Shown here one piece after another: positions 7,699 through 37,380 of a stretch of DNA of 44,746 nucleotides. The notes under the pieces were generated by a model. That model did not search any database. It saw only the letters and a program-made list of their open reading frames with translations, and was not told where the DNA came from. This DNA comes from Candidatus Limnocylindrales bacterium. Its GTDB lineage: Bacteria; Moduliflexota; Moduliflexia; Moduliflexales; JAUQPW01. A program made the translations under genes and the position numbers. The DNA lies in contig DATMBG010000036.1 in NCBI GenBank assembly GCA_035559535.1, forward strand, positions 124,001 through 168,746, in the 5' to 3' direction. Numbering within the stretch: the first letter of the stretch is position 1; the number at the start of each line of letters is the position of its first letter.

Positions 7699-8667
7699 AT
7701 GAAAAACCTGAAAGATCCTATAAAGTATTGCAGCGTGGGGATCATGGCCCATAATGAGGAGGCCAACATCCATCGTTTGTTGGAGGCTTTATTAAGGCAG
7801 AATCTGGAGGGGTATCATATTCAGGAGATAATAGTGGTTGCCAGCGGGTGCACGGATAATACCGAAGCCCTTGTAAGGGAATTTTGTGGCCAAGATGAGC
7901 GGATTAAACTCCTGGTTCAAGAACAGCGGGAGGGAAAGGCCTCAGCGATCAATCTCTTCCTTCAAGAAGCCAAAGCCGACATCCTGGTTTTAGAAAGTGC
8001 CGATACGATTCCTTCTCGGAATGCCATAAAAAATCTCTTAAAACCTTTCTCAGATCCTAGAGTAGGGATGACGGGAGCTCGATCTCGTCCCATTAACCAT
8101 TTAAATACCTTTATGGGATATTCCATCAACTTCCTCTGGTGGATGCATCACTACCTAGCCCTTAGCAAACCTAAACTGGGTGAGCTGGTCGCTTTCAGGA
8201 ATGTCATTAAAAGAATCCCATCGGATACGGCGGTTGATGAAGCGGCCCTGGAAGCCATCTTAGTTAGAGCCGGATATCAAATCCTTTACGTGAAAGATGC
8301 TATTGTACGAAATAAGGGTCCAGAAACCATCCGGGATTACCTGACCCAGCGGCGACGTATCGTTGCAGGACATAAACATCTCTACAGAACCCAGGGATAT
8401 GCTGTAGCATCCACCGATATCCGGCTGATTCTATCTATTCTTGTGAAGAAAGTTTATCTTCATTTGGAAATGATCCTTCGGCTTATAAAACAAAGGCGCT
8501 TTCATCGCCTGACAAAGTATTTATTCCTCCATCTTCGGCGAGTTCTTTATATTATCGGAGCTATCTTCCTGGAAATTCTGGGCCAGGGCCTCGGAGCTTA
8601 TGATTTTTACATTAAAAAGAAAAACCCTTTCATCTGGGATGTGGCCAGAAGTACAAAGAAAATATGA
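7699..8667 (+). CDS. Glycosyltransferase family 2
   Basis: VGIMAHNEE, SGCTDNT, GKASAIN, ESAD, QRRRI (QxxRW-like). Confidence 0.88.
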   Translation: MKNLKDPIKYCSVGIMAHNEEANIHRLLEALLRQNLEGYHIQEIIVVASGCTDNTEALVREFCGQDERIKLLVQEQREGKASAINLFLQEAKADILVLESADTIPSRNAIKNLLKPFSDPRVGMTGARSRPINHLNTFMGYSINFLWWMHHYLALSKPKLGELVAFRNVIKRIPSDTAVDEAALEAILVRAGYQILYVKDAIVRNKGPETIRDYLTQRRRIVAGHKHLYRTQGYAVASTDIRLILSILVKKVYLHLEMILRLIKQRRFHRLTKYLFLHLRRVLYIIGAIFLEILGQGLGAYDFYIKKKNPFIWDVARSTKKI

Positions 8668-9764
8668 TGAAAACCAACTTATTTTCTAAAATTTTGAGGT
8701 ACCCCCTCTTTAGAAAATTCGGGTTCCCCAATACCCTTCCGGTTAATTTAACTGTCAGCATTTTGTACTCATGTAACGCCCGATGCCAGACCTGTAACAT
8801 TTATAAAAAACGGGTTGATAATCTTACGGTCGAAGAATACGACAGGATCTTCAAATCCCTGGGTAAAGCGCCATTTTGGTTTACCATTAGCGGGGGAGAA
8901 CCTTTCTTGAGGAAAGATATTGTGGAAATCTGTCGGCGTGCTTACCGGCACTGTAAGCCGGGTATCATTAATATTCCCACCAACGGGATTCTTTATCGGT
9001 TTATTCCGGATAGGGTGGAACAGATCGCAAAGAGTTGTCCGGATAGCCAGATCATCATTAATCTTTCTCTGGATGAAATCGGTGAGCGGCATGATGAAAT
9101 TCGGGGTTATAAAAATAACTACCAACTGGCCTTAAAAACCTACCAGCAACTTAAAAATCTCGATTATCCCAATTTAACCCTGGGGATTCACACGGTTCTA
9201 TCCAAATATAACGTCCATAACATTTTCCCTATCTATCATGAATTGGACCGACTGGAGCCAAACTCTTATATCACAGAAATAGCAGAGGAGCGGATGGAGT
9301 TGGATACGGTTGGGTTGGATATTACCCCTTCCTATGAGGAATATGCCCAGGCAGTGGATTTTCTCACCAAAGAAATTGAAAAGAAGCAGTCTATCTCGGG
9401 TACTTCGATTTTCCATATTTCCAAGATTACCCAGGCTTTTCGGCTAGAATACTATCAGTTGGTAAAACAGATTTTGTTGAAGAAAACCCAGGTGATTCCC
9501 TGTTATGCCGGTTGGGCTTCTGCCCATATAGCCCCGGATGGAAATGTGTGGACTTGCTGTATTCGGGCCGAGAGCATAGGAAATCTTCGGGAATATGACT
9601 ATGATTTCAAGAAAGTATGGTCTAGCCCAAAGGCTGAAGAACTCAGGGCCAGTATTCGAAATAAGGAATGTTATTGTCCATTGGCCAATGCCAGTTACAC
9701 CAATATGTTATGTTCTGGAAGGACCATAACCCGGGTAATCTGGCGAATTCTGAAATGGATATAG
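8664..9764 (+). CDS. Radical SAM protein with SPASM/twitch-like C-terminal domain
   Basis: CNARCQTC (CxxxCxxC), SGGEPFLR, TNG; C-terminal CYAG...PDGNVWTCC...IGNL...CYC. Confidence 0.9.
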   Translation: MMKTNLFSKILRYPLFRKFGFPNTLPVNLTVSILYSCNARCQTCNIYKKRVDNLTVEEYDRIFKSLGKAPFWFTISGGEPFLRKDIVEICRRAYRHCKPGIINIPTNGILYRFIPDRVEQIAKSCPDSQIIINLSLDEIGERHDEIRGYKNNYQLALKTYQQLKNLDYPNLTLGIHTVLSKYNVHNIFPIYHELDRLEPNSYITEIAEERMELDTVGLDITPSYEEYAQAVDFLTKEIEKKQSISGTSIFHISKITQAFRLEYYQLVKQILLKKTQVIPCYAGWASAHIAPDGNVWTCCIRAESIGNLREYDYDFKKVWSSPKAEELRASIRNKECYCPLANASYTNMLCSGRTITRVIWRILKWI

Positions 9765-11688: not shown

Positions 11689-13008
11689 ATGGCCACTAAA
11701 ATTATAGAATGGGATATTTCTCAACCCATTGTACAGGAAGTCTCAACGGCATCCCATACTTCGGCTTCTCAAATTGGAGGCCTGGAGGGGTATCAGAATT
11801 TGCAAGTACTGGTAAGAATGGGGAGGATTCCATTGGGCCTTGTAAACCTGAAGGTGGATTCTCCTTTTATAGAAGTCTCCATGCTACTTCGAGAAATCTA
11901 CCGACAATTGGGGCAGAAGATTTCCCTGGAATTAGCCAGAAGGCCATCTTTTCCAGGGAAAGGAGAAGCAAAGGAAAGGGAGGGAACAAAGGGAGATGAA
12001 AAGAGAGATGGCCTTTCCTCCTTTTCTCCTTTAGTTTCGGTCTGTGTCTGTACAAGGAACCGTCCTGACGATCTACGTCGTTGTTTAAATTCCCTTATCT
12101 TGCAAGACTATCCCAGGTACGAAATTCTGGTCATCGATAATGATCCTCCGACTTCAGTAACAAAGGAGCTTGTAATGGAGATGAAGGGTCGGCTTGAAGT
12201 TACTGCCATCCGGTATGTTGTAGAACCTCGACGGGGTTTAGATTTTGCCCGGAACCGGGCGATCCAGGAGGCAAGGGGAGAAATTCTATCTTATCTGGAT
12301 GACGATACGGTTGCAGATCCTGGATGGATCACGTCCATAGTCGAAAATTTTCAATCAGATCCCCATATCATGGGTTGTACAGGACCTAATTTGGCCTTGG
12401 AGATGGAAACCGAAGCCCAAGAACTCATGGAATTAAGAGGAGGTTATGGTCATTGGTTTGAAAAAAGGATCTATGAACTCAGCTCTCCGATAGGAAGTTG
12501 TTATCCTTGTAAACCTATCTTTGGAGCCGGATGTAACATGTCTTTTCGGAGAAAGATCTTTGATTTTGTGGGTCTATTTGATGAAGCCCTGGATACTGGC
12601 GTCCCTCTACCGGGGGGTGGGGATGCAGACATGTTCTACCGAATTATTCGGGCAGGCTATAAAATTGCTCAGGATCCTAGGGTCCTGGTTTGGCACCGCC
12701 ATCGACGGCATTATAAAGAGTTACGAAGTCAGTTATACCACTCTTGGGGTCGGGGATTTATGGCCTATCTGGTTAAATCGTATCTGACCGATAAACCCTA
12801 TCGAAAAACCATTCTATCTGCCATAGTAGTCTGGTATGGTTATCAGTTAATAACCCGAGTATTCGGGCGTTTACGGGGAAAATATGATTTTCCAATGGAC
12901 CTGATCCTTGCCGAATTTTTAGGAGGGATAGTAGGCCTTGGGAGTTATTTTACCTCCTGGAGACGTATAGCTAAAATAAAAGCCATAACCGACTCCTGTA
13001 AAACATGA
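11689..13008 (+). CDS. Glycosyltransferase family 2 with N-terminal accessory module
   Basis: SVCVCTRNR, IDND, GLDFARNR, YLDDD, GAGCNMSFRR, GGGDADM, WHRHRR; paralog of 21025-22227 and 23727-24935. Confidence 0.92.
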   Translation: MATKIIEWDISQPIVQEVSTASHTSASQIGGLEGYQNLQVLVRMGRIPLGLVNLKVDSPFIEVSMLLREIYRQLGQKISLELARRPSFPGKGEAKEREGTKGDEKRDGLSSFSPLVSVCVCTRNRPDDLRRCLNSLILQDYPRYEILVIDNDPPTSVTKELVMEMKGRLEVTAIRYVVEPRRGLDFARNRAIQEARGEILSYLDDDTVADPGWITSIVENFQSDPHIMGCTGPNLALEMETEAQELMELRGGYGHWFEKRIYELSSPIGSCYPCKPIFGAGCNMSFRRKIFDFVGLFDEALDTGVPLPGGGDADMFYRIIRAGYKIAQDPRVLVWHRHRRHYKELRSQLYHSWGRGFMAYLVKSYLTDKPYRKTILSAIVVWYGYQLITRVFGRLRGKYDFPMDLILAEFLGGIVGLGSYFTSWRRIAKIKAITDSCKT

Positions 13009-13014
13009 ACTCCC

Positions 13015-14643
13015 ATGAGTCCAGATAGATATACCGTAGAAACTCAACAGACAGGGAGAAGCATAAAGATCGTTTTAGGAATTCTGACCCTACTTCTCCT
13101 TTCAGGCGGGGTTCTGGAACTTTATTGGAGATACTGGGTTATTGTCCCTTTAGAACTCGATTCCCGTAAGGGTCTTGAAGATCTTGTCCTGGCCATGGAC
13201 AGTAAGGATAGAAATACCCGCTGGAAAGCCCTCTCTTTGCTGAGAGAAATAAAGTCGGAGGAAACTCTTCCCCTTTTTGTTAAGGCCTTACAGGATGAAG
13301 ACTTTCGTATACGTGAAGAGGCCGAGAAGGCTCTTCGAGAACTGAAAAGGGAAAGAATGATGGAGTCCCTTCGGTTGATTTTTAAAGAGAAGGATCCCAA
13401 AATACGCCTGATAGCAGTATCTATAGCCGTTTCTTTACTGGCAGGACCCTATGCAGAACCTGCCACCCAGTTCCTCACCTATGCCTTGGAGGATGAAGAC
13501 CGGAATGTCCGTAAAGCGGCTTTGTCTGGATTGGAAAAGTTGGGGTTAGAGAAAATAACCGAACCTCTTCTTAAAGCCTTGCAGGATAAAGACGAGGAAA
13601 TCAGCAAGAAAGCAGCCTCGGATTTACTCCTGGCCAGGCCCGACAACCTGATTTCATCCCTTATACCTCTGCTGAAGTCCGAAGACGTCGACCTTCGGTA
13701 TAAAGCTATTTCTCTACTGGGAGAACTCAAAATCGAACCGGCTCTGGAATTTCTCGTCCAGGCCCTGAAGGACCCGGTTGAGTCTATACGATGGACGGCT
13801 GTATCGGCTCTGGAGGATCTGAAATCAGATCGTTTAGTTGAACCCCTTATTCAGGCACTTCTAAACGATCCATCCGATGGAATCCGTTGGAAAGCGGCTA
13901 CTATATTAGGAAAGCTGAAATCCGACAAGGCCGTAGATCCCCTCATCCAGGTCCTCCTTCATGATAAAAATGAGGGAGTACGATGGGAGGCTTTAACTGC
14001 ATTGGAGGAACTGAAATCTGAAAAAGCCGTAGATTCTCTTATCTGGATTCTGCTGCAGGAGAAGAATTTAAGATGGGGAGCATTGTCGGCTCTCAAGAAA
14101 CTTAAATCCAAAAGGGCTATCGAACCGATTATCCAGATCTTGAAGGATGAAAATGCAGGGATACGTGGGGAAGCAGCAACGGTTCTGGGAGAACTCTGTG
14201 CAAACGCTCCACCGGGGTATCCAACTTGCGAGAAGGCAGTAATGCCCCTTATAGAAGGGCTTAAAGATAAAAATGAATGGGTTCGAGGTCATATGATCAC
14301 CGCCCTGGGGAATTTAAAGTCAAAGACGGCCACGGAACCTCTCCAGAAAATGTTAAACGATCAAGATTTCCAGATCCAGGAGAAAATTGCCTTTGCTTTA
14401 ACCCAGATAGATGCCGAGATGGGAATCTCTCTGCTGGATCATAGATCCATCTGGGTGGTTAAGGGAGCCTCAGAAGCCCTGGCCCAGATCGGCGATGAAA
14501 AAACCCTGGAAGCTTTAAAGAGCCTGGCTGTAGAGCAAAAATTTAACGGAAAAATTTATTATATCTCTATCTCCGATCTTATGGAAAGAATCCAATGGCG
14601 ACTAAAAGAGGAGAAAATTCGGGATGATAAAAATAAAAACTAA
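13015..14643 (+). CDS. Membrane-anchored HEAT-repeat (PBS lyase-like) protein
   Basis: Single N-terminal TM helix, then many ~31-aa repeats L.D....IR..A...LG.L.S..AV.PL. Confidence 0.88.
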   Translation: MSPDRYTVETQQTGRSIKIVLGILTLLLLSGGVLELYWRYWVIVPLELDSRKGLEDLVLAMDSKDRNTRWKALSLLREIKSEETLPLFVKALQDEDFRIREEAEKALRELKRERMMESLRLIFKEKDPKIRLIAVSIAVSLLAGPYAEPATQFLTYALEDEDRNVRKAALSGLEKLGLEKITEPLLKALQDKDEEISKKAASDLLLARPDNLISSLIPLLKSEDVDLRYKAISLLGELKIEPALEFLVQALKDPVESIRWTAVSALEDLKSDRLVEPLIQALLNDPSDGIRWKAATILGKLKSDKAVDPLIQVLLHDKNEGVRWEALTALEELKSEKAVDSLIWILLQEKNLRWGALSALKKLKSKRAIEPIIQILKDENAGIRGEAATVLGELCANAPPGYPTCEKAVMPLIEGLKDKNEWVRGHMITALGNLKSKTATEPLQKMLNDQDFQIQEKIAFALTQIDAEMGISLLDHRSIWVVKGASEALAQIGDEKTLEALKSLAVEQKFNGKIYYISISDLMERIQWRLKEEKIRDDKNKN

Positions 14644-15481
14644 AAGAATTTTTAACCAGGTTCCAAAGTCCAGTCGGATTACCATCCCATCTGAAAAAAC
14701 AAGCCTGGGGCAGGATTGCAAGGAAATTCTGGCCCATCGACAGATTATTAAAAATTTTGTGGGTCGGGACCTTAAAATTAAATACCAAAGATCCATTTTG
14801 GGTTTCTTCTGGACCTTACTTAACCCTTTATTAATGGTGGTTATCTATACCCTGGTCTTTTCAAAAATCCTTCAATTTAACATCCCTTTTTATCCGATTT
14901 TTATTTTAAGCGGTCTTTTGCCCTGGAATTTCTTTTCTCAATCCCTATCCATGGGTTCTAGATCTATAACAGATAATTCGGGTCTCATCAACCAGGTTTC
15001 TTTCCCCCTCGAAATCCTGACCCTCAGTACCATTTTATCTATCCTTGTGGATTTTATTGTGGAATTAGGACTCCTGATGGGTATCCTTTTCATTATGGAT
15101 TGGAATTTAAGTCCTGCCATGTTATTCTTACCGATTCTGATCGTTATAGAATTTATCCTAATTCTGGGTATCTCGTTGATACTGGCCACTTTAAATGTGT
15201 TTTTTAGAGATGTTCAGCATATTATTTCCATCTTGTTGACCGCCTGGTTCTTCCTGACCCCTATATTCTATACCTTTGAATCGGTTCCACCTCCGTACAG
15301 GCCTCTTTATAAGTTAAATCCCATGGCGGGGATTATTGCCGCCTTCAGGGATATTCTCTACTATGATCGCTTCCCCGCGCTCGATTTTCTAATTTATCCG
15401 GGTATCGTGTCGCTGGTGACCTTCCTGGCCGGTTATTTGATTTTTAAAGGTTTCAAAGGAGTTTTTCCCGAAGAAGCTTAA
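14624..15481 (+). CDS. wzm: ABC-2 polysaccharide exporter permease
   Basis: RDLKIKYQRSILGFFWTLLNPL, FFRDVQH, FFLTPIFY, LNPM. Confidence 0.92.
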   Translation: MIKIKTKRIFNQVPKSSRITIPSEKTSLGQDCKEILAHRQIIKNFVGRDLKIKYQRSILGFFWTLLNPLLMVVIYTLVFSKILQFNIPFYPIFILSGLLPWNFFSQSLSMGSRSITDNSGLINQVSFPLEILTLSTILSILVDFIVELGLLMGILFIMDWNLSPAMLFLPILIVIEFILILGISLILATLNVFFRDVQHIISILLTAWFFLTPIFYTFESVPPPYRPLYKLNPMAGIIAAFRDILYYDRFPALDFLIYPGIVSLVTFLAGYLIFKGFKGVFPEEA

Positions 15482-15499
15482 AGGAGTAAGGTACCTTCC

Positions 15500-16237
15500 A
15501 TGAAAGTGGTAGAATGCAGTCATCTTTCTAAGAGATTTAAAATCTATAAACGAAAACAAAACACCTTGAATGGATTTTTTGTGAATCTTTTTCATCCAAA
15601 TTCCTATGAATACTTTTGGGCTTTAAAGGATATAAGTTTTTCCGTCTCTCAAGGAGAAACCTTCGGGATTATTGGCCGAAACGGTTGCGGGAAGACAACT
15701 TTGTTTAAAATTATTTCACGAATTTTACCTCCAACCACAGGGACCCTTTCGATAGAAGGAAAAGTTTCTGCCCTGTTAGCTTTAGGAGCAGGTTTCCATG
15801 GAGAGTTAACGGGACGGGAAAATATTTATTTAAACGGGTCAATTCTGGGATTATCAAAAAAGGAAATCGATCAGAAAATCGAAGCCATTATTGATTTTGC
15901 AGAAATTGTCCGGCCCTTTATCGATACCCAGATTAAGCACTATTCCTCAGGGATGTATCTACGATTGGCTTTTGCAGTTGCCCTGAGTGTTAATCCCGAT
16001 ATCCTTCTGTTGGATGAGATTTTGGGAGTTGGTGATGCCGCATTTTGGTATAAGTGTTTTGATAAAATCACCGAATTTCGGGATCAGGGAAAAACTCTTC
16101 TTCTTATCTCCCACGATCTGAGTTTGATGGAATATTTATGCCATCGGGTTATCTGGATCGATGAAGGGGTTTTGAAGGAAGAGGGTCCTGCAAAGGAAGT
16201 GATAGATCACTATCGGCAAGCAGTGGTCCCTAAATAA
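15500..16237 (+). CDS. wzt: ABC polysaccharide exporter ATPase, no C-terminal carbohydrate-binding module
   Basis: FWALKDISF, GRNGCGKTT, ELTGRENI, YSSGMYLRLAF, LLLDE; only 245 aa. Confidence 0.93.
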   Translation: MKVVECSHLSKRFKIYKRKQNTLNGFFVNLFHPNSYEYFWALKDISFSVSQGETFGIIGRNGCGKTTLFKIISRILPPTTGTLSIEGKVSALLALGAGFHGELTGRENIYLNGSILGLSKKEIDQKIEAIIDFAEIVRPFIDTQIKHYSSGMYLRLAFAVALSVNPDILLLDEILGVGDAAFWYKCFDKITEFRDQGKTLLLISHDLSLMEYLCHRVIWIDEGVLKEEGPAKEVIDHYRQAVVPK

Positions 16238-16264
16238 ATTATCAAATAATGAAATGTGAGGTGT

Positions 16265-16304
16265 CAGAAATCAAGAATTCCAGGATTTCAGTTCTTGATT
16301 TTTG
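16265..16304 (+). terminator. Hairpin between wzt and the trifunctional gene (terminator, attenuator or processing site)
   Basis: cagaaatcaagaa / ttcttgatttttg, 13-bp stem with one G-U pair. Confidence 0.45.
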
Positions 16305-16345
16305 TTCCTTCAGGGTTCCTTACTCTCAGCTTAGCCGGAATAACC

Positions 16346-19300
16346 ATGCGTCCCAGTGTATCTGTGATTATACCTGCTCATAACGCAGCGGACACGCTGG
16401 CACAGACCCTTGAATCGCTTCTTGTCCAGACTGTTCCAGACTGGGAAGCCATTGTTGTCGATGATGGGTCGACCGACAGAACTGCCTTTATAGCTACTAG
16501 CTTTGCGGAACGAGATCCAAGGATACGTACTGTGAGCCAACTCCAGAAGGGTGCAGGGGCTGCCCGCAATGCCGGGATTCGCCTGGCCCATTTCGATTGG
16601 TTGCTCTTCCTGGATGCTGATGATTGGATTCTACCTCCTCTGCTGGAGCGGTTAACAGATGGCCTCATCGCCGATCCCGGTCTTGATGCCGTTCACTGCG
16701 GCTGGGCGCGTATTGCTCCCAATGGAGAAGTTTTCAGTGAGGAAGGCTGTACTCTATCGGGAGATCTATTTGCCAAAGCTGCCTGTAGATGCCCCTTCGT
16801 CATTCATAGTTGCATTGTACGTCGTTCGCTGGTTGAGATGGTGGGTGGCTTTGATTCTACCTTTCAGACGTGTGAAGATTGGGATCTTTGGCAGCGTATT
16901 GCCCGTACAGGGGCTCGTTTTGGGAGGATTCCGGATGTTCTCTCTCGATACCGTATGCGGGGCCATTCCCTCTCGTCCAATGTGCACCAAATGCTCACAG
17001 ACGGCCTTCGGGTCATTACTTTGGGACACTCCCGGGATCCCCGGGTTCCGAATCCAGATCCCGCCCATATGGATGGGTTACCTGTTGAAAACCTATCGGT
17101 TACAAAGGCCCTTTTCGTGATATGGTGGGCTTTCTTTTTGATCGGTTGTGGCCAGAATCCCAAACCCTTGCTTGGCAGGATAAAAGAAAACCGTTATCTC
17201 CCCCTCGATCCTCCTGTCATAGCTCAAATGATCTTCACAACCGTACCCCTGGCCCTATACAAAACGCCTTCTGCCTGGGTTGAGCTCTGGCCCTCCCTTG
17301 CCCGACCTATTGAAGAATTCTTACTTTCCCTTGAAGAACTGACTTCCCCTCCAGGTTTGATGCGCCGCTGTAGTACGATCCTGGAGCGGTTGATTCTGGA
17401 TTACTGGAGTGCCCATATAAGAGGGTCTAAGCCGCAGACACTTTCTATGGGAACGACCCATGCCGTCCGGATTGAGGTAACAGAACCAATTCCGGACCTT
17501 ATCATCCCGGCACCTGCTGAGCGTTTACATTGTACTGTCGAGCTTGAGGGCAAGTCTTTGGGCGTGATCGAACTACCAATTTGCGATGAATTGGTTTCCG
17601 CCCAGGTTCTTACCGATGCCATTGCAGCTAAATTTTTCTGGCCGATCCTTGGGAAGTTCTTTGAACGAACGATTTATCCCGGTGTGGAAATTCGGGAAAC
17701 TTCTAAAGGCTTATCCGTATGGCGTGGAGCTGTGCTCCTGGCAGAGGGACTCCCTAAACCGGAGTCCCAGACCTTTTTCCAGGAAATCCATGATCAAATC
17801 GGCTGGACCCTATTCTTGCAAGAAATCTGGGCACGCCCAGACTGGACCTCTTCCCATTTCTACGATCCCCAATCTGGGGACCAACCAGCCACACGACGCC
17901 ATAGGGTCGCTCAGACCCGTAATGGAAACAACTGGTTGACCTTGGAAGTTAGTGGAGATCTTCCCGATGTAGAAATCATGGATCAGAAGCTCAAAGTCAT
18001 ACCTACTGTTGGCGGTACCGCCCTGGGGATCGTAACGATTTCGGTCAAGGGGAACCTGATACGAGCTCAAGAATTACGGGCCGTTCTTACCACTGTTGGT
18101 GGCTTAGAATTGTGCCGTATGGCTGTACGGGAAGGATTAATTGGCAGGCCTTTCGAAGAAGCTGCATCTCTTCGGACACGCCTGGCTTCGGTCGCTCAGA
18201 AGAACTTCAGAAGCATAACTCCTAAAGAACCAAAGGAGGTTCTCCTGGTACCTGACTGGACCCAAACTGTAGCCCGTGCATTGTCCTGGGATAACCTAAT
18301 AAAACAACCCTTGAGAAGCGTAATCCTTGCCCGGCGAGCCCATGGTCGGATCGGAACCAGTGTCTGCCGACGGGCTTTACTTCCTGCGGCGGCTGCCCCG
18401 GATCTCATCAAAGCTGCCCTGGCTGCCGACGAGCCTGTCATTCAGATTCATGGGTTGAACAAGCAATCCAAACCGACCGTTCACCTGCAGAATCTACTCC
18501 GGCAGGGATGGAACCGGATTTGGCGTCGGAATCCAGGATACGAGGATACAGAACCTCCAGGGCGAGTAATCTACGTTCCAGACCTGCTTTGGCAACCATG
18601 TCGACACACGTCCGTATCCCCTGTGGAAACAAAAGGGTCTGATGAGGAACCTTCACCCCAGAAGAACCGACTTATGGGAGGCTCTTCCTATGATCGACAC
18701 TTCTTCGAGACCATATTCGTAACCCAATCCGATCCTTGGAGATACACCCATCCTTACGAACAGACCAAATACGAGCAAACCCTGGCCCTCCTTCCTACGC
18801 TATCCTTCGACAAAGCCCTTGAGCTTGCCTGTGCCGAAGGTCATTTTACAGTCCAACTGGCCCCTCGTGTCAGAAGCCTTATGGCCGCCGATATTTCCCA
18901 AACGGCACTGGATAGAGCCGCAGCGCGATGCTCAAATTGCAAGAACGTACAGTTCATACGACTCGACCTGACCAAGGACCCGTTGCCCGGTCGCTTCAAC
19001 TTGATTGTCTGTAGCGAGGTCCTTTACTATGTCGGCAGGAGGGATTCCCTGGAAGCAGTGGCCCGTAAGCTTGCCGATGCCCTGGAGCCTGGAGGCTACC
19101 TGATCTCAGCCCATGCCAACCTCGTTGTCGACGAGCCGGATCGTACCGGCTTTGATTGGAACCATCCGTTTGGGGCAAAGGTTATCGGCGAAGTACTGGC
19201 AAGTACACCTCCTCTTCGGCTTGTGAAGGAGCTTCGAACTCCACTTTACCGTATCCAACTCTTCCAACGACAATATCCGATACAAGGGACCTATGAATTG

Positions 19301-20140
19301 AGTTCTCACGGGCAAAATACGCCGGAAATCATAGAACTCCCGCAATCTACTCCTCTACCTCCTCATGTCGCGGCTCGGGTCCTCTGGCAGGGGGGCCGTC
19401 CAAAAATCTACGGTCCCCCACCGACTACTGTCACAGACCGGCTTCCCATCCTCCTGTATCACCGTATCACACCCGACAGTTCCTCCCTGCGTTATTGTGT
19501 AACCCCCCAAATGTTCGAAGAGCAAATCCGTTACCTGCACGAGACCGGGTTCTATAGCATCAGGTTGGAGGATTGGCATACGGCTATGGAAACCCGGCGC
19601 CCCTTGCCGGGTCGAGCCATACTCCTCACCTTTGATGACGGCTATGCCGATTTCCTGACGTATGCATGGCCTGTGCTGAAGCGTTATGGCTTCTCCGCCA
19701 TGGTCTTCCTGGTTGCAGAAGAAATCGGACGTTTGAACCGGTGGGAACTTTTTTATGGAGAAGCAGTCCCTCTGCTTCATTGGGATGAAATTCATCAACT
19801 CCAAAAGGAAGGGGTTGAATTTGGTGCGCATTCGGCCACCCATCGTCCTTTGACGGCACTTTCTATAACTGAGATTGTTCGTGAAGGGGCCCGCTCCCGG
19901 GCAATCCTCCAGCGAGGACTGGGCCGTCCCGTCACGTCCTTTGCCTATCCCTACGGGGAAGTCGACCCGGTCGTTCAACACCTCATAGGAGCCTGTGGCT
20001 ATATCTTCGGCCTGTCTTGCCGACCCGAACGGAGCAGGTTTCAGGATTCCTTACTTGAATTACCTCGAATCGAAGTGACCGGTTCAGATAATTTACAGAC
20101 CTTTATCTCAAAACTCAGTATTAAGCCCGATTCTTCTTAA
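16346..20140 (+). CDS. Trifunctional GT2 / NodS-like SAM methyltransferase / NodB-type (CE4) polysaccharide deacetylase
   Basis: N-terminal GT2 (SVIIPAHN, VDDGSTD, FLDADD, EDWDLW); NodS-like DPWRY...YEQTKY...ALELACAEGHFT...LIVCSEVLYY; CE4 motifs ILLYHR, TFDDGY, HSATH, FAYPYG, LPRIEV; start set at ATG 16346. Confidence 0.88.
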   Translation: MRPSVSVIIPAHNAADTLAQTLESLLVQTVPDWEAIVVDDGSTDRTAFIATSFAERDPRIRTVSQLQKGAGAARNAGIRLAHFDWLLFLDADDWILPPLLERLTDGLIADPGLDAVHCGWARIAPNGEVFSEEGCTLSGDLFAKAACRCPFVIHSCIVRRSLVEMVGGFDSTFQTCEDWDLWQRIARTGARFGRIPDVLSRYRMRGHSLSSNVHQMLTDGLRVITLGHSRDPRVPNPDPAHMDGLPVENLSVTKALFVIWWAFFLIGCGQNPKPLLGRIKENRYLPLDPPVIAQMIFTTVPLALYKTPSAWVELWPSLARPIEEFLLSLEELTSPPGLMRRCSTILERLILDYWSAHIRGSKPQTLSMGTTHAVRIEVTEPIPDLIIPAPAERLHCTVELEGKSLGVIELPICDELVSAQVLTDAIAAKFFWPILGKFFERTIYPGVEIRETSKGLSVWRGAVLLAEGLPKPESQTFFQEIHDQIGWTLFLQEIWARPDWTSSHFYDPQSGDQPATRRHRVAQTRNGNNWLTLEVSGDLPDVEIMDQKLKVIPTVGGTALGIVTISVKGNLIRAQELRAVLTTVGGLELCRMAVREGLIGRPFEEAASLRTRLASVAQKNFRSITPKEPKEVLLVPDWTQTVARALSWDNLIKQPLRSVILARRAHGRIGTSVCRRALLPAAAAPDLIKAALAADEPVIQIHGLNKQSKPTVHLQNLLRQGWNRIWRRNPGYEDTEPPGRVIYVPDLLWQPCRHTSVSPVETKGSDEEPSPQKNRLMGGSSYDRHFFETIFVTQSDPWRYTHPYEQTKYEQTLALLPTLSFDKALELACAEGHFTVQLAPRVRSLMAADISQTALDRAAARCSNCKNVQFIRLDLTKDPLPGRFNLIVCSEVLYYVGRRDSLEAVARKLADALEPGGYLISAHANLVVDEPDRTGFDWNHPFGAKVIGEVLASTPPLRLVKELRTPLYRIQLFQRQYPIQGTYELSSHGQNTPEIIELPQSTPLPPHVAARVLWQGGRPKIYGPPPTTVTDRLPILLYHRITPDSSSLRYCVTPQMFEEQIRYLHETGFYSIRLEDWHTAMETRRPLPGRAILLTFDDGYADFLTYAWPVLKRYGFSAMVFLVAEEIGRLNRWELFYGEAVPLLHWDEIHQLQKEGVEFGAHSATHRPLTALSITEIVREGARSRAILQRGLGRPVTSFAYPYGEVDPVVQHLIGACGYIFGLSCRPERSRFQDSLLELPRIEVTGSDNLQTFISKLSIKPDSS

Positions 20141-20927
20141 GGATGACCAAATCCTGTGCCCCAACCCAGGTTGCCGTACTTCCAGACCAAAGTCCTGGTA
20201 AAGGAGCCTGGACCAGTTCTAAACCTGCCTGAAGAGTAAAACGCTGGATCAGGCTAAATCGGTAGGCGGTCATTTGCTCGGGATTGTCTGGCTCTACAAT
20301 GGCAAAATCGTCATCGTAAGGCCCATAAGGATGATCAAAATTGAATAGGGGTCGTGCAAACCCAGATGGCCTGGGTTGTCCAGGTCGATAATTATCGAGC
20401 AGAAAGAAACTAAATACACAACGCCCACCCGACTTGAGAACTCGGGCTGACTCCCGGAAGTAGTTCAAAGTTGCCTCCGGTAACATATGGGTAAAGACAG
20501 AGGCCGCATAGACAATATCAAAGGTACAATCAGGATAAGGAAAGTGATACACTGCGGCAGATATCCGTCCGGCAGGATTATAACAGGTATTGTGGATATC
20601 GGCCCAGAGGAAACGGAAGTTCGGATAGGCCCTATGGAAAGTTTGCTCAAGAAATATAATTTTATTCCGGCAAATATCAAAACCCTCATAAGAGCCTTCT
20701 GAGGATAAAATATACCGTAAGGGAAAAGCGATTCGCCCGAGTCCACAGCCTATTTCAAGCACAGCACTCTGCCGGGTGATACCGCCATAGATACGGAGTA
20801 ACATACTCCATTCTTCCGCCCATCGGAACCACTCTTCAAGCACTTCAATACCCTCCTGACGCATTAGAGATAAAGGAGGAATAAGATCCGGTTCGTAGGC
20901 AATCTGAGGTTGATTGATAGCATTCAT
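20121..20927 (-). CDS. Class I SAM-dependent methyltransferase
   Basis: VLEIGCGLGR, GFDI, FDIVYAASVFTHM, RVLKSGG. Confidence 0.9.
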   Translation of the reverse strand: MNAINQPQIAYEPDLIPPLSLMRQEGIEVLEEWFRWAEEWSMLLRIYGGITRQSAVLEIGCGLGRIAFPLRYILSSEGSYEGFDICRNKIIFLEQTFHRAYPNFRFLWADIHNTCYNPAGRISAAVYHFPYPDCTFDIVYAASVFTHMLPEATLNYFRESARVLKSGGRCVFSFFLLDNYRPGQPRPSGFARPLFNFDHPYGPYDDDFAIVEPDNPEQMTAYRFSLIQRFTLQAGLELVQAPLPGLWSGSTATWVGAQDLVILKKNRA

Positions 20928-20930
20928 GAT

Positions 20931-21025
20931 AGTTATCGATTTTATTTATCCACGAAGGGTCAAGAAAAATATGAGAATATGGGGGTATGGGTGTAAATTC
21001 TCCCATACCCCCACACTCCCATACT
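20931..21025. repeat. Octamer-hairpin element (family copy 2)
   Basis: AGTTATCGATTTTATTTATCCACGAAGGGTCAAGAAAA followed by aatatggg/ggtatggg, loop TGTAAATTC, tcccatac/ccccacac/tcccatac; collinear with 975-1077. Confidence 0.75.
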
Positions 21026-22227
21026 CACAGTAGAGAGTTGGAGCGAACTTTACGATCATAGCGATAGGTGGCAAAATAGGTCCAAGGGGCATGTAGCATT
21101 CCCCATAGTTCCGCCCAGACCAGCCTGAGAGGAAAGGTATGCCGTCTCAATAAGCCTTTAACCAGGCGATTCAGAAGCCAGCCCACTATCCATTGCCATA
21201 AGGCAAAGTGGAGAACTTTACCACGTCCAACTTGACCTCTACGCCACACTTTGATGAGGTACACTCCAAACGCACATCCGTTATTATAAAGTTGCTGGCG
21301 CAGGCCATCCATATCTCGCCGATGCTGATGCCAGACTAAGGCCGTTGGCTCATAACGCAGCGTCAAACCAGCGGTAAGAATCCTGTGGAACATGTCCAGA
21401 TCACCTCCTCCTCGTGCAGGAGTACCCACATCCAGGGCCGTATCAAAGTTACCGACGATTTCAAAGACGTTTCGGCGAAAAGCCATATTAGCCCCAACCC
21501 CAACGGCATGCACGGCAATGAGGTCTTGGGGACGCAGGGTCTCACGCTGAAATTGGCGAGGTAGCATCCCTTTGCCCATACCACCGTATTGTTCAAATAG
21601 ATGTTGGGCAGGGGTCTCCAATTCAGCAGGCAGGACCAGCCCGGTCATGGCCGATACCTGCGGATCGGCAAACGCAGTAGCAACTCCCTGAAGCCAGCCC
21701 GGATCTACCCTTACATCGTCATCTACATAAGCGATAATGTCATATTGGGCTTCGGCTATACCCCGGTTACGTGCCCAGTTTAATCCGGGTCGATCTTCTC
21801 GTACAGAACGAAATGGCGTTTCAGATACCACCTCGGCCGTTGCTTGATCCCGGGAAGCATTATCCACCACAATCACCTCATACGTTTTATACTCGAGCCG
21901 GCTTAAGGCTTTGAGACACTGTCGTAAGGAATAGGCCCGATCCCTTGTGCAGACAACAATACTGATAGGGAGGTTTAAATCACAGGTAAATTCGGTTCTC
22001 CGTGCGTAGGTAGTTTGCTCTTCAGGGGAAATATTAAGTTGATCGGCAATAGCCTGCTCCAATTGACGGTGGGACAAGGTGACCTGCCAGGGACTTAAGG
22101 TAAGGTACAAAATCCCCAAGGGCCGTCTTCCGTTCCGTACCAATACAAACGCTTGTTGATAACCTTCCAATCCCCAAATCGGGGTTGAGGGTCGACTCAG
22201 ATCGTATTGGATGATATAAGTTCTCAT
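21025..22227 (-). CDS. Glycosyltransferase family 2 with N-terminal accessory module
   Basis: SIVVCTRDR, VVDNA, GLNWARNR, YVDDD, GVGANMAFRR, GGGDLDM; start set at MRTYIIQYD by alignment with paralogs. Confidence 0.9.
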   Translation of the reverse strand: MRTYIIQYDLSRPSTPIWGLEGYQQAFVLVRNGRRPLGILYLTLSPWQVTLSHRQLEQAIADQLNISPEEQTTYARRTEFTCDLNLPISIVVCTRDRAYSLRQCLKALSRLEYKTYEVIVVDNASRDQATAEVVSETPFRSVREDRPGLNWARNRGIAEAQYDIIAYVDDDVRVDPGWLQGVATAFADPQVSAMTGLVLPAELETPAQHLFEQYGGMGKGMLPRQFQRETLRPQDLIAVHAVGVGANMAFRRNVFEIVGNFDTALDVGTPARGGGDLDMFHRILTAGLTLRYEPTALVWHQHRRDMDGLRQQLYNNGCAFGVYLIKVWRRGQVGRGKVLHFALWQWIVGWLLNRLVKGLLRRHTFPLRLVWAELWGMLHAPWTYFATYRYDRKVRSNSLL

Positions 22228-22245
22228 GACTCCAAGGAGAGTAGG

Positions 22246-22338
22246 CTCCCACCTTGTCCCTCCCCCGCTTCGCAGGGGAGGGGACTTTGATGGCAACATT
22301 TCTTCCCCTGCCAAAGTGGGAGAAGGTCAGGGAGGGGG
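22246..22338. repeat. GC-rich REP-like double hairpin
   Basis: cccacct.g.ccctcccc...ggggagggga plus inverted ttcccctgc...gtgggagaaggtcagggaggggg; similar to elements at 32613-33590. Confidence 0.6.
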
Positions 22339-22414
22339 CCTGTTGACAGGTACTTCCCTAAAAAACCTACCTTGATTGGGGAGCGTTCCTTAAGTCAAGG
22401 CCATGGGGGGTTAA

Positions 22415-23710
22415 TCAGGAAGGGATATTTGCATCTTTCTTAAGTCCCCCATTCCTTTGTAAAGTCTGAGGTATCGGACTTGAGTGTTCCAGTTGATCTA
22501 GCATATATAAACCGAGGAGCATAGTTCCATATTGGTAAATCAGTGCCTCCCGAACATGAACAGGTCGTAGGGGCTCGGCACCGATCATCGGTGCAATACG
22601 GCCAAGGGGGATAGTGCCGTACCGCAAACGCACTGCGTCCACAGGATTTTCATTTAGAATCGCCTCAAGGCGTGGCATATCCGTGGCTACATCCAGTTCG
22701 ATTTCATGATAGGTGATTGGCTCCAGGGGGGCATCTTGCTGTAACCGCCGCAGAGCAGACAACGAGCCCAGTTCCCTCTTCACACCACGCCAATAGAAAT
22801 AACTATGCAAACAACCATAGATACGTTCCATCAGACTGGAAAATTTACAGGCCCTGGCAACACGAAGGGGCACCCGGAGTATTTGAGCCAGGAGCGTAGC
22901 CAGTACCGGCTGCCGCCAGAGCAGGTACCAAAGAGGTCGCAGAATTGGGCCTGAAACCGGTCGGCTTAGCGAAAACTCTCGAAACACCTCAGGATGTTTT
23001 TGTACGATTAAGGACTGACCCTGCCCTTCTGCGGTTGCCCTTTGGAGTGAGCGCTCCAAAGATAGTTCACCATGGTGAATACTAGCAGCTTCGCGTATGA
23101 AGCGAAATCGCACCCTCCGCTTCAGGAGTCGTATACCGAACTCGTAATCTTCACCGGCTTTCCCATGAAACCGCTCATCGAACCCTCCCAGGTCATTAAA
23201 TAACTGACGGGGCAATGAAACATTGCCCGTACAGAAATCCCAAAAAGTAAAACGATGGGAAGGTTGTGACCGGGCCTGGAATCCTTTATCCCACCAAAGC
23301 TTAACGGAGATTTCAAAGATATCCGTGATATTTTCACGGACAGCTACCGGAAAATAACCCAATACTACCCCTCCGGGATAGGCGGTATGGGTCGTGAGAT
23401 GTGCCCGAACAAGTTCCGGCGTTGCTTCCATATCATCATCCAGAAAGAGTAGCAAAGGCGCGGTAGCCAAACGGGCACCGTGGTTGCGAGCGGCAGCGGC
23501 TCCCAATGCAGGCTGCTCGACGAATATGAGGGTATAAGGTAACTGGAGTGACCGGACCACATCGGAGGTAGAATCCTGACATCCATCGGCCACTACAATG
23601 ACTTCATAGTCTTCAGGAGCAGTGGTCTGTTTTGCAAGGGCTCCTAACGTGCGAGGTAACATCTCGCTACGGTTGTGGGTCGGAATAATAATACTGATCC
23701 GTGGGGTCAT
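22415..23710 (-). CDS. Glycosyltransferase family 2 with C-terminal accessory module
   Basis: SIIIPTHNR, VADG, GAAAARNHG, FLDDD, TGNVS, GGFDE, GEDYEFG. Confidence 0.9.
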   Translation of the reverse strand: MTPRISIIIPTHNRSEMLPRTLGALAKQTTAPEDYEVIVVADGCQDSTSDVVRSLQLPYTLIFVEQPALGAAAARNHGARLATAPLLLFLDDDMEATPELVRAHLTTHTAYPGGVVLGYFPVAVRENITDIFEISVKLWWDKGFQARSQPSHRFTFWDFCTGNVSLPRQLFNDLGGFDERFHGKAGEDYEFGIRLLKRRVRFRFIREAASIHHGELSLERSLQRATAEGQGQSLIVQKHPEVFREFSLSRPVSGPILRPLWYLLWRQPVLATLLAQILRVPLRVARACKFSSLMERIYGCLHSYFYWRGVKRELGSLSALRRLQQDAPLEPITYHEIELDVATDMPRLEAILNENPVDAVRLRYGTIPLGRIAPMIGAEPLRPVHVREALIYQYGTMLLGLYMLDQLEHSSPIPQTLQRNGGLKKDANIPS

Positions 23711-23726
23711 AAGTTCCCTCCAAAGG

Positions 23727-24935
23727 TTATGTTTGGGGAGTTTTTACTCCAATCAACCGGGTCCTACGTTCACGACGACGGCTGATAAAATAGGCGTAGG
23801 GCGCAATGAAACAACCCCACAACTCTGCCAAAGTCATGGTCAGGGGATAAGCATCAGGATGGCGAAGCACTCCCAACCTGAGATGGCGTAAATGGTGATG
23901 GTGGAACCAGTACCAGGCCACCTGAAGCGCTTGGAGATCTCTATGTTGAAACAGGCAGCGAAGCAGGAACGCATAGGTTCCCACACTGTAACCATAAAGA
24001 GCTTTGCGTAACTCGCCGTAACTACGACGGTGGCGATGCCAGACTACAGCCGCCGGGTCGTATACAATCCGATAGCCGGCCCTCAATAAGCGATAAAAGG
24101 CATAGGTATCTCCACTGGACTGGGTCGCCGTCCCACCGTCAAGTTCCACGGCAAACAAACCGAGTTGATTCAGCAATTGCCGCCGAAATGCCATATTAGC
24201 CCCTGCTCCTACATTGGCTGCTGCAGCGGGTAAAATCGTCTGAGCTGTGAACTCACGTCGCCGGAAACCTCGCCCAAAGCCTCCATACTGCTCAAATAAT
24301 TCCTGGGCTTCGGTCTCCAGTTCAAAGGGCATTACCAGGCCCGTAACAGCAGCAACCTGAGGATCGACAAAGGGTCTAAGCATGGCTTTGATCCAGCCGG
24401 CTTCCACCACCACGTCATCATCGGTATAGATCACAACCTCACCTTTAGCCACCTGTGCGCCTCGGGTCCGGGCCCAGTTCAAGCCTTTACGAGGCTCAAG
24501 TACATAATGTACAGGATAGCCGGTCACCAAGCGAGTCGTGCTGTCATCCGAGGGGGCATTGTCAACGACAATAATTTCAGTGTCCTTCGTGGCTACAGTA
24601 CACAGGGTATCCAGACAACGGCGGAGGTCATCGGTACGGTTACGGGTGCAAATAACCACACTGGCCGATGGCAGCTTTTCTTCAAATACTGGTACTTCAG
24701 CAGAAGTAGGGAGTAGCTCATCAAGGGCAACAACCACAAGTGCTTTATCTAACTTCGCACTTGCCGCTCGCCAGAGATCGACGGCCGTAATGCGACCTCC
24801 CAGGATATCCATCTGTACCTGCCCTAGAGGTTTACCTCGCCAACGTAGCAAGATTAATGCGGTACGATACGGAGACAGATCCTGAATATCCTGGGGGCCA
24901 TAGGCTAAATCTACATCCAAAATTTTTGTGGCCAT
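23727..24935 (-). CDS. Glycosyltransferase family 2 with N-terminal accessory module
   Basis: SVVICTRNR, VVDNAP, GLNWAR, YTDDD, GAGANMAFRR, WHRHRR. Confidence 0.92.
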   Translation of the reverse strand: MATKILDVDLAYGPQDIQDLSPYRTALILLRWRGKPLGQVQMDILGGRITAVDLWRAASAKLDKALVVVALDELLPTSAEVPVFEEKLPSASVVICTRNRTDDLRRCLDTLCTVATKDTEIIVVDNAPSDDSTTRLVTGYPVHYVLEPRKGLNWARTRGAQVAKGEVVIYTDDDVVVEAGWIKAMLRPFVDPQVAAVTGLVMPFELETEAQELFEQYGGFGRGFRRREFTAQTILPAAAANVGAGANMAFRRQLLNQLGLFAVELDGGTATQSSGDTYAFYRLLRAGYRIVYDPAAVVWHRHRRSYGELRKALYGYSVGTYAFLLRCLFQHRDLQALQVAWYWFHHHHLRHLRLGVLRHPDAYPLTMTLAELWGCFIAPYAYFISRRRERRTRLIGVKTPQT

Positions 24936-25430: not shown

Positions 25431-26330
25431 ATGCGTTATACTATCCCTATAGAAAAAAGTTCTAAATCCGTATCTCATCCCTCCTGGTTGAAGAGAACTT
25501 CAGGTATGAGAATTCAAATCGGCGTTCTAGGTTTACTATTTCTTATTTTGTATTCGCCTCTCTTTCCTATGCTGGTTTACGATTGGAGCCATGACCCCAA
25601 CTACTCCCATGGATTTTTAATCCCTGTGGTTTCCGGTTACCTGGTTTGGCAGCAGAGAGAAAAGTTGGGGTTTCAGAAAGTGAGTCCTTCAAACTGGGGG
25701 TTAGCGATCACAGTTCTCGGCTTGATCCTTTACCTGGTTGCAAATATTGCAGCCGAACTTTATACCATGCGGGTATCTATGCTGATCGTTTTAAGTGGAA
25801 TTATTCTGGCTATATTTGGAAAAAATATCTTTAAGATCTTACTGTTTCCCATAGCCTATCTTCTTTTTATGATCCCGATTCCCTATATTATTTATAATTT
25901 GATCGCCTTTCCCCTTAAAATGTTTGTTACAGCCCAGGCCGAGACCCTTCTTCAGGGGATGGGCATCCCGGTTCTTCGGGAAGGAAATGTTCTTCATATG
26001 TCTACGGGTCCTTTAGAGGTGGTGGATGCCTGTAGTGGCATGAGATCTATCATGTCTCTCCTCGCTTTAAGTGCTGCTTTCGGATATCTTACCCTTAAAA
26101 CCAATTGGAAACGGATTCTTCTTTTCATTTCCGCCATTCCCATCGCTATATTAACCAATTTATTCCGTGTAACATTCACCGGTATCTTAGCAAACTCTTA
26201 TGGTCAGCGAGTAGCTGAAGGATTTTTACATGAATTCTCTGGCATGCTGGTCTTTGGAATGGCTTTGATTTGCTTATTCGGTGTAAGGGGTTTATTATCA
26301 TGGATCAAGCCACAAGAAACTTCCTTATAA
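25431..26330 (+). CDS. xrtA: Exosortase (EpsH/XrtA type)
   Basis: YSHGFLIP, FMIPIP, REGN, catalytic triad contexts ACSGMRS, NLFRV, FLHEFSG; multiple TM helices; exact subtype not determined. Confidence 0.88.
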   Translation: MRYTIPIEKSSKSVSHPSWLKRTSGMRIQIGVLGLLFLILYSPLFPMLVYDWSHDPNYSHGFLIPVVSGYLVWQQREKLGFQKVSPSNWGLAITVLGLILYLVANIAAELYTMRVSMLIVLSGIILAIFGKNIFKILLFPIAYLLFMIPIPYIIYNLIAFPLKMFVTAQAETLLQGMGIPVLREGNVLHMSTGPLEVVDACSGMRSIMSLLALSAAFGYLTLKTNWKRILLFISAIPIAILTNLFRVTFTGILANSYGQRVAEGFLHEFSGMLVFGMALICLFGVRGLLSWIKPQETSL

Positions 26331-26965
26331 TTTGTATACTCCTGGGCTTAACCACAGGGTACCTGCGACTCTTACCTCACGGTCAGGATATTCCTTTGCG
26401 TCAGGATATTCTCACCTTAAATACTCAAATCGGTGACTGGACAGGAAAACCTCATATTCCCTTCTCCCCTGAAGTCCTCGAAAAGCTCCGGGTAGATGAT
26501 TACCTTAATCGTAATTATCAAAATTCCAGAGGAGAAATGATCTCCCTCTATGTGGGCTACTATCGTAATCAACGCCAGGGAGATCTTATCCACTCCCCTC
26601 AACAGTGTCTGCCGGGTGGAGGATGGAACATTACAAAAAGAGAGATTATCTCCATTCCTATCCAGGACGGAAGACGTTCCCATCTTCGGGTCAACCGGTT
26701 TACCCTCCAAAAAGACGATGAAAAAATGCTGGCTTATTACTGGTATGAGGGTCGAGGAAGGACTTTGACCAGCGAGTACCTACAAAAAGTTTATCTTATT
26801 CTGGATGCCATCCGGTATAATCGAACCGATGAAGCGCTGATACGCCTCCTCACCCCCATTCGGAATGATAACCTGGCCGAAGCCGACCGAAACTTGCGGG
26901 ATTTTACCCAGAAAATAGCACCGATCTTGAGTAATCGGTACTTTCCACCTGCCCCTGGGGTTTAG
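26300..26965 (+). CDS. epsI: EpsI-family exosortase-associated protein
   Basis: IGDWTG, LYVGYY, IHSPQQCLPGGGW, YYWY, RTDEALIR; start set at ATG 26300. Confidence 0.9.
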   Translation: MDQATRNFLIICILLGLTTGYLRLLPHGQDIPLRQDILTLNTQIGDWTGKPHIPFSPEVLEKLRVDDYLNRNYQNSRGEMISLYVGYYRNQRQGDLIHSPQQCLPGGGWNITKREIISIPIQDGRRSHLRVNRFTLQKDDEKMLAYYWYEGRGRTLTSEYLQKVYLILDAIRYNRTDEALIRLLTPIRNDNLAEADRNLRDFTQKIAPILSNRYFPPAPGV

Positions 26966-27023: not shown

Positions 27024-27437
27024 GTGAAGCACTTTCGGCAGTTACGGGTTTATCAAGGGGCATTAGAAGCTGCGATGAAGATTTTTGAACTATCTAAAAA
27101 TTGGCCGAAAGAAGAACGATACTCTTTAACTGATCAAATTCGAAGGTCATCTCGTTCCGTATGCTCCAATATTACAGAAGCATGGTGTAAACGTCGTTAT
27201 GTGGCTCACTTTGTTAGTAAGTTAACAGACGCAGATGGTGAAGCTGCCGAGACCCAATCATGGCTTGACTTTGCTCTACGCTGTGGCTATATTTCTGAAA
27301 CAGACTTTATTGAACTAAATCAGTGTTATGAAGCCATTAGCAGTGGGTTAGTAAGGATGATGGCTGAAGCTGAGAAATGGTGCGGTCCTGCCTCTTTGTT
27401 GAAAGAGGACAGTGTTGATTACGAAATCAGCACTTAA
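27024..27437 (+). CDS. Four helix bundle protein (23S rRNA IVS protein / bAvd-like family)
   Basis: FRQLRVYQ, WPKEERYSLTDQIRRSSRSVCSNITEAW, EAAETQSWL; GTG start with AGGAGGTG RBS. Confidence 0.92.
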   Translation: MKHFRQLRVYQGALEAAMKIFELSKNWPKEERYSLTDQIRRSSRSVCSNITEAWCKRRYVAHFVSKLTDADGEAAETQSWLDFALRCGYISETDFIELNQCYEAISSGLVRMMAEAEKWCGPASLLKEDSVDYEIST

Positions 27438-34518: not shown

Positions 34519-34589
34519 AACAATTACCTTTAGTAAACCAGAAAACCCCTTTTATTTAAAACGGAGGTTTCTGGTCTTTTTATTTAACC

Positions 34590-37155: not shown

Positions 37156-37179
37156 AGCTTAAAGAATTGTTTCCACTTT

Positions 37180-37370
37180 GAGACGCGGAGTTTCGGGACA
37201 TGGGGGCGCGGAGACAGAATTTCCCCTGTTTCCGTGTCCCATTGTCTCCCAGTCCTAAAGTCCCCGCGTCCCCCCATGTCCCCGCATCCCCATGTCTCAG
37301 ATATGGCCCTTCGTGGATAAATAAAATCAATAACTTACAATAACTTAACTTACGAGAAAATGCAAAAGTA
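37180..37370. repeat. Octamer-hairpin element (family copy 3, inverted) between prsK and prsR
   Basis: ggcccttcgtggataaataaaatcaataactta and aaaatgcaaaagta (37357-37370) match copy 1; hairpin made of different octamers (gtccccgc/atccccat versus gagacgcg/ggacatgg). Confidence 0.7.
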
Positions 37371-37380
37371 TCGTATTTTT

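Follow-up and report, generated by a model that had tools for sequence, protein, structure and literature searches.

A 44,746-nt stretch of DNA from Candidatus Limnocylindrales bacterium (assembly GCA_035559535.1, contig DATMBG010000036.1, positions 124,001 to 168,746; here called the window) encodes five proteins, P0001 to P0005, that share a small domain, the module, in six copies (Table 1). All five hosts belong to glycosyltransferase family 2 (GT2) and have a PF00535 GT-A domain with a DxD motif. The module is a non-catalytic accessory domain of glycan-assembly enzymes, the six segments very probably constitute one family, and we favor, with a probability of roughly 40%, the reading that modules are surfaces through which catalytic units hold one another. 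A first-pass annotation of the same sequence had pointed to six copies in five glycosyltransferases; all six were recovered at the places it gave, and the residue pattern it described is visible in our alignments, in which the six segments share one register. Its statement that other glycosyltransferases of the window lack the module can be extended to the 5.6-Mb genome, in which a profile search scored these six copies and no further one, the other GT2 and GT4 genes of the window included.

Homology across the three position classes became significant only when relatives were added. Pairwise BLASTP links the three N-terminal copies to each other (E 1e-11 to 3e-3) and the two internal copies to each other (E 8e-4), with no link between position classes among the window copies. 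Likewise, profiles built from a single class of window copies did not find the other classes at E≤1 among the 27,640 six-frame open reading frames (ORFs) of the genome, and a word-indexed homolog search with the N-terminal module of P0003 alone returned nothing beyond the query. Since the window alone was insufficient, relatives were fetched by scanning species genomes with P0004, which gave 80 loci and, together with this genome, 39,031 ORFs. Iterated profiles over these ORFs collected 31 N-type, 12 internal and 9 C-type copies. When compared with hhalign, the N-type and internal profiles, which have zero sequences in common, aligned at 96.7% (P 4.4e-10), C-type with N-type at 84.8% (P 6.5e-6, 65 columns in register) and C-type with internal at 82% (P 1.1e-5); the highest score among 100 column-shuffled controls was 16, versus 31-50 for these comparisons. 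The earlier proposal that the six segments align therefore stands for their register and, with relatives included, for their homology, but not for significance across the three position classes from the window alone.

A competing explanation is that the six segments are not one family and that chance or convergence has made the C-terminal segment of P0004 look like the others. It would account for the failure of the window-only profiles to join the classes and for an additional helix in the C-terminal copy, and an Atlas structure search with this copy retrieved CBS/ASCH-like rows only (template modeling score, TM, ≤0.46) and no N-type proteins. However, the profile-profile matches are in register with P values that no shuffled control approached, and a profile of 292 copies from which every C-type copy was excluded matches the P0004 segment over its full length. 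The E value of this match, 0.008 in 39,031 ORFs, is in itself a point for chance, but the same profile, blind to C copies, matches seven C-type orthologs in the correct position, six at E 4e-4 to 0.017 and the seventh, L072, at only E 0.3. Moreover, N and C copies share three small clusters (0.82-0.88) in an Atlas feature search, which we treat as leads only. Taken together, we give chance or convergence very little credence.

The module was described in the first-pass annotation as unannotated, and this is what we find. Family scans of the five window proteins with Pfam-A 2025 (E≤1) and NCBIfam 20.0 (E≤0.01) yielded matches only on the GT2, methyltransferase and deacetylase parts, so that none of the six segments is covered; among 34 database relatives scanned at E≤1e-6, no family lies on the module stretch, and for the aligned part the Atlas gives "no family over half". 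Neither a sequence match to the module nor a solved fold like it was found in the PDB. A fold search with the whole P0004 model gave GT-A matches only, none of them over the module, and a full-text literature search found no description of this domain.

Structure predictions suggest that the module, of about 75 residues, folds into a small sheet of antiparallel strands (beta1, beta2, beta3 and a short beta4) with a single helix of 24-28 residues behind it. In the AlphaFold2 model of the P0002 tandem block, based on a 46-row alignment (predicted local distance difference test, pLDDT, 94.2; predicted TM score, pTM, 0.90), module a is followed by a meander of three strands with two helices and then by module b, all within one compact body. 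Module a comprises strands at block residues 7-14, 28-37 and 40-48 and a helix at 56-79, and module b strands at 167-171, 185-192 and 200-203 and a helix at 211-234. Both internal copies (pLDDT 94) have the same order of elements, and the C-terminal copy of P0004 (pLDDT 91-96 in the copy; 92.2 with pTM 0.89 for the protein) is predicted to follow it as well, with a helix added in the beta1-beta2 loop, so that the structural comparison proposed with the original description agrees between internal and C-terminal copies. Over 336 copies, conservation is found at G37 (89%), G33 (73%) and P12 (58%), in the hydrophobic core, and at a D/E (95%) in beta1, the sole conserved polar position. Judged from these residues, the pattern fits a structural or interface domain rather than a catalytic one. 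The P0001 copy, with an extra 12 residues inserted in the first loop, is matched by the 336-copy profile at E 5.8e-10.

The module family is large. In a search of 1.84 billion representative proteins, a profile of 47 copies matched 1271 at E≤1e-3, of which 290 reached E≤1e-10, the family thereby comprising at least 1271 clusters at 50% identity. Among the best 150 of the 1271, one copy is present in 23 proteins, two in 111, three in 14, four in 1 and five in 1, counts that are biased because more copies give a higher score. Out of 293 copies, 95 are N-terminal and 167 internal, and the other 31 lie no more than 60 residues from the C terminus. The 143 gaps between successive copies correspond to one GT2 unit in 62 cases, to a tandem arrangement (45-109 residues) in 56 and to adjacent modules (<45 residues) in 8. 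The 34 scanned proteins include (module-GT2) repeated 2-5 times, GT2-module-module-NodS methyltransferase-deacetylase as in P0002, module-module-methyltransferase-deacetylase without a GT2, module-module-deacetylase, and GT2-Cmodule-Nmodule-GT2; sulfotransferase-deacetylase proteins were seen in the Atlas. Thus, four enzyme types are found beside the module: GT2, NodS-like methyltransferase, deacetylase and sulfotransferase. Tandem pairs without any GT2 are present in P0053, P0087, P0108 and P0129.

Candidate stand-alone module proteins, matches of 63-196 residues, were rejected as contig-end fragments because they lie on small contigs of 0.5-2.5 kb, and two of them cluster with GT2s of 398 and 408 residues. 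At the other extreme, the metagenomic protein P0008 (2213 aa, on a 7.7-kb contig) has five successive module-GT2 units with a 442-residue period and may be either a genuine giant polymerase or a product of misassembly. Module-less relatives of P0004 also exist: five proteins of about 565 residues (27-30% identity; L018, L024, L041, L048 and L069, each matching from position 10001 to about 11700 of its locus) are direct fusions of a GT2 with a polysaccharide deacetylase, in 5 of 5 examined.

In a tree of 47 copies, those of one position class cluster together even when they come from different genomes (C-type 100/98, internal-a 100/99, internal-b 96/80), with the P0005 copy among the orthologs of the first N-type glycosyltransferase (88/86) and the copies of P0003 and P0001 among those of the second (90/85). 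Since the six copies cluster with same-position copies of other phyla and not with each other, they are old paralogs carried along with their enzymes and not recent insertions. The module had been called mobile; this holds for the family at large, which occurs N-terminally, internally and C-terminally beside the four enzyme types, but not for this genome. The cassette itself was probably acquired horizontally, because the GC content of the 16-24 kb block containing P0002 to P0005 (16001-24000) is 49-54% compared to 40-47% around it, and because no module copy was found at E≤0.001 in 8 other genomes of this organism's small phylum (completeness 77-97%).

How could such a domain act? The first-pass annotation had suggested a docking or oligomerization domain, and this is the reading we favor. 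In our proposal, the module is a constant accessory of the cytoplasmic enzymes of a Wzm/Wzt polysaccharide pathway, a conserved set that has spread horizontally. Two modules would pair within one chain, as in the P0002 tandem block, or between chains, as the C-terminal module of P0004 with the N-terminal module of P0003, and this pairing would build the multi-enzyme polymerization and modification complex needed by this pathway type. Natural in-frame fusions of P0004-like and P0003-like enzymes point in this direction: in L013, L085, P0022 and P0138 the order is GT2-Cmodule-Nmodule-GT2, with about 25-30 aa between the two modules. The tandem pair of P0002 is predicted to be one rigid body, which we also count for assembly. 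Moreover, modules occur in sets, as 18 of the 80 loci bear a module and 14 of these 18 have 2-4 copies, as do, with 2-5 copies, 127 of the best 150 proteins. Whereas the module-less homologs of P0004 fuse a GT2 to a deacetylase, the deacetylase here sits in the module-bearing P0002, so that the two activities may associate in trans.

Complex prediction with full-length P0004 and P0003 gave a score of 0.47 (runs 0.47, 0.48 and 0.32) compared to 0.00 for the best of three controls. Of 157 solved complexes, 116 passed the mark for such scores, as did 2 of 215 mismatched pairs; both of these mismatches, but only 18 of the 157, did so at scores of 0.60 or below. Between runs, at least 88% of contacts coincide, and the partner pLDDT is at least 84. 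The pairwise complex check suggested with the first description therefore lends weak support to P0004 and P0003 binding each other, but gave no interface and does not show a role for the module.

Several observations weigh against pairing through modules. Without an interface, the P0004-P0003 prediction does not imply contact between modules, and two GT2 folds could score through their likeness to solved GT2 assemblies. Every unit in multi-unit fusions retains its module, as in the five units of P0008 and the 62 of 143 gaps spanning one GT2 unit, which is unexpected if the module merely tethers separate proteins. The predicted structures place modules in rigid contact with their own enzyme (pTM 0.89 for P0004 and also for the Atlas model of P0005), unlike the flexible tethering of classical docking domains. 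Finally, modules share loci largely because one cassette has been inherited as a whole, so that their co-occurrence adds no independent evidence. A docking role is plausible but unproven.

The retention of the module in each unit and its rigid packing fit equally well an integral accessory domain on the substrate side, which would bind or position the growing lipid-linked glycan, or shape the acceptor site or the membrane-proximal face, with no binding between enzymes. The first-pass annotation had named a shared acceptor-binding module as its alternative. That the four enzyme types carrying the module would act on one glycan is in agreement with this possibility. In addition, mutual information over 139 module-GT2 units links module residue R31 with E178, five residues past the DDD motif, and Y23 with E207, although z values of 4.6-5.5 compared to a top overall z of 10.5, from few and related sequences, make this an exploratory lead only. 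On the other hand, pyrophosphate, lipid or sugar binding would lead one to expect a conserved basic or aromatic cluster, which is not found over the 336 copies, where the beta1 D/E is the one conserved polar position; and a role at a single glycosyltransferase site leaves the tandem pairs of the GT2-less proteins unexplained. We regard a substrate-side domain as a serious rival, somewhat less likely than pairing.

The module could instead be a structural spacer or stabilizer that recognizes no particular partner or ligand, such as a rigid block holding the GT2 of P0002 at a set distance from its methyltransferase and deacetylase, in a role comparable to that of the rulers in terminator proteins. 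The compact, highly confident model of the tandem block and the mostly hydrophobic and glycine conservation would suit such a role, and non-catalytic spacers are described in terminator proteins of this pathway type (PMC11231755). A spacer explains neither single N- or C-terminal modules on glycosyltransferases of about 400 residues nor the deep conservation of position classes over phyla, and we consider it improbable. Still less probable is a regulatory ligand-binding pair of the CBS/Bateman kind (PF00571), in which two copies would form a cleft for a nucleotide-type effector. CBS domains are similar in size, are small beta/alpha units and frequently occur in tandem as one body, as the module copies of P0002 are predicted to do; the C-type copy likewise has the order beta-alpha-beta-beta-alpha, and its nearest Atlas structures are CBS domains. 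However, the TM scores of 0.35-0.44 are below 0.5, PF00571 gives no match at E≤1 in P0001-P0005, the first helix is not present in N and internal types, conserved ligand-type residues are missing from the family, and many proteins have a single copy.

Among known systems, the closest in pathway type are those in which polymerase and terminator modules assemble through protein-protein contacts: WbdA (recruited by WbdD), WbbB and the Klebsiella O4/O7 systems (PMC11231755). According to the same source, O-polysaccharide assembly in ABC-transporter-dependent pathways proceeds through multiprotein complexes, with the catalytic modules distributed in varying ways over single- and multi-module proteins. 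As in our cassette, glycosyltransferase modules are fused or split and a multi-domain modifying enzyme includes a methyltransferase; the known systems need complexes. They rely on a coiled-coil ruler plus a recruitment region, in contrast to the repeated α/β domain of each unit here. No coiled coil was seen in the module system, in which no search aimed at coiled coils was made.

The extra domains of TarS, TarP and RmlT, GT-A GT2 enzymes that act on polymers, mediate oligomerization. No alignment to these chains covers P0004 residues 336-410, and their accessory domain has a fixed position, whereas the module is N-terminal, C-terminal or in tandem. A works-like analogy is offered by the docking (communication) domains of modular polyketide synthases and nonribosomal peptide synthetases, small terminal elements on successive enzymes whose C- and N-terminal elements become adjacent upon fusion. 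Like the module hosts, these enzymes are separate or fused proteins, with unrelated enzymology and chemistry. Such docking domains are short and flexibly tethered, in contrast to the module, whose predicted packing is rigid and which persists in fusions. A bolder version of the pairing reading, that modules are a new class of assembly-line connector whose position classes encode enzyme neighbors in the Wzm/Wzt complex and whose fusions reveal the cognate pairs, seems unlikely to us.

To our knowledge, only a few enterobacterial models have shown how soluble glycosyltransferases in ABC-transporter-dependent polysaccharide pathways locate one another and maintain their order. Here, a widespread and recognizable domain, for which we found no annotation and no solved analog, marks every enzyme of one conserved cassette. 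If the assembly role is true, it would provide a sequence handle to predict complex composition and to engineer glycan assembly lines; if shared-substrate binding is true, the module would represent a new carbohydrate- or lipid-carrier-recognition fold. Either way, it merits a family entry and a structure.

Table 1. Positions of the modules, of the P0002 gene and of the adjoining transporter genes in the window.
Feature	Coordinates	Strand	Details
P0001 module, N-terminal	11689..11961	+	residues 1-91; host gene 11689-13008, GT2
Wzm-like ABC-2 permease and Wzt-like ATPase	14624..16237	+	directly upstream of P0002
P0002 host gene	16256..20140	+	GT2 36-240, helical region, two modules, NodS-like methyltransferase 825-981, polysaccharide deacetylase 1063-1290
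P0002 conserved tandem-module block	17435..18190	+	residues 394-645
P0002 internal module a	17453..17671	+	residues ~400-472, numbering from GTG at 16256
P0002 internal module b	17933..18136	+	residues ~560-627, numbering from GTG at 16256
P0003 module, N-terminal	21991..22227	-	residues 1-79 from ATG at 22227; host gene 21025-22227, GT2
P0004 module, C-terminal	22481..22705	-	residues 336-410; host gene 22415-23710, GT2
P0005 module, N-terminal	24702..24935	-	residues 1-78; host gene 23727-24935, GT2

The genomic context identifies the pathway as an ABC-transporter-dependent (Wzm/Wzt) polysaccharide pathway. The Wzt-like ATPase of the window (15500-16237, plus strand; 245 aa) has ABC_tran only and is without the carbohydrate-binding Wzt_C domain, whereas a Wzm and a Wzt with Wzt_C lie beside module-bearing glycosyltransferases in 4 of 4 other loci examined (L008, L012, L015 and L017). 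A recurrent locus order of N-type GT2, C-type GT2, (Wzm, Wzt) and N-type GT2, with the trifunctional protein nearby, is found in loci labeled as Thiocapsa marina, Oscillochloris trichoides, Bryobacteraceae/Solibacteraceae, Gemmatimonadaceae and other metagenome-assembled genomes.

Among the hosts, P0001, P0003 and P0005 are MftF-like and P0004 is a K4CP/EpsD-like GT2, while P0002 combines GT2, methyltransferase and deacetylase. The MftF model TIGR03965 scores the GT part only (P0003 135.7, P0005 133.5 and P0001 94.4 bits), all below the curated cut-off of 280, and a search to see whether MftF bears the module found no MftF above cut-off in this genome or 14 control genomes. The start of P0003 is the same as that of its orthologs. 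For P0002, the consensus of homologs suggests that the true start is the ATG at 16346 (MRPSVSVIIP...) rather than the GTG used for numbering. Its GT2, NodS-like N-methyltransferase and NodB-type deacetylase are encoded in one gene directly 3' of Wzm/Wzt. A GT2, an N-methyltransferase and a deacetylase are the enzyme trio that decorates Nod factors, and P0002 could add a terminal amino sugar, deacetylate it and N-methylate it as a chain-end modification.

Between P0001 and the Wzm/Wzt genes, 13015-14643 (plus strand) encodes a 542-residue protein made entirely of HEAT repeats, which is unusual in a glycan cluster and a possible scaffold. Upstream in the sugar cluster, 8664-9764 and 5193-6764 (both plus strand) encode a radical-SAM/SPASM protein and a TMEM260/PMT_2-like membrane glycosyltransferase. 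The module-bearing genes are flanked by a PEP-CTERM/exosortase exopolysaccharide locus (25431-26965 and 31822-32538, plus strand; 33643-39477, minus strand) with the exosortase EpsH and its DUF3485 partner, a PEP-CTERM protein, a Wza-like exporter, a GT4, a sigma-54 response regulator and a 7TM-GAF histidine kinase. A gene for a 23S rRNA intervening-sequence protein (27024-27437, plus strand; four-helix bundle, bAvd-like) lies between the exosortase pair and a 1194-residue tetratricopeptide repeat (TPR) protein.

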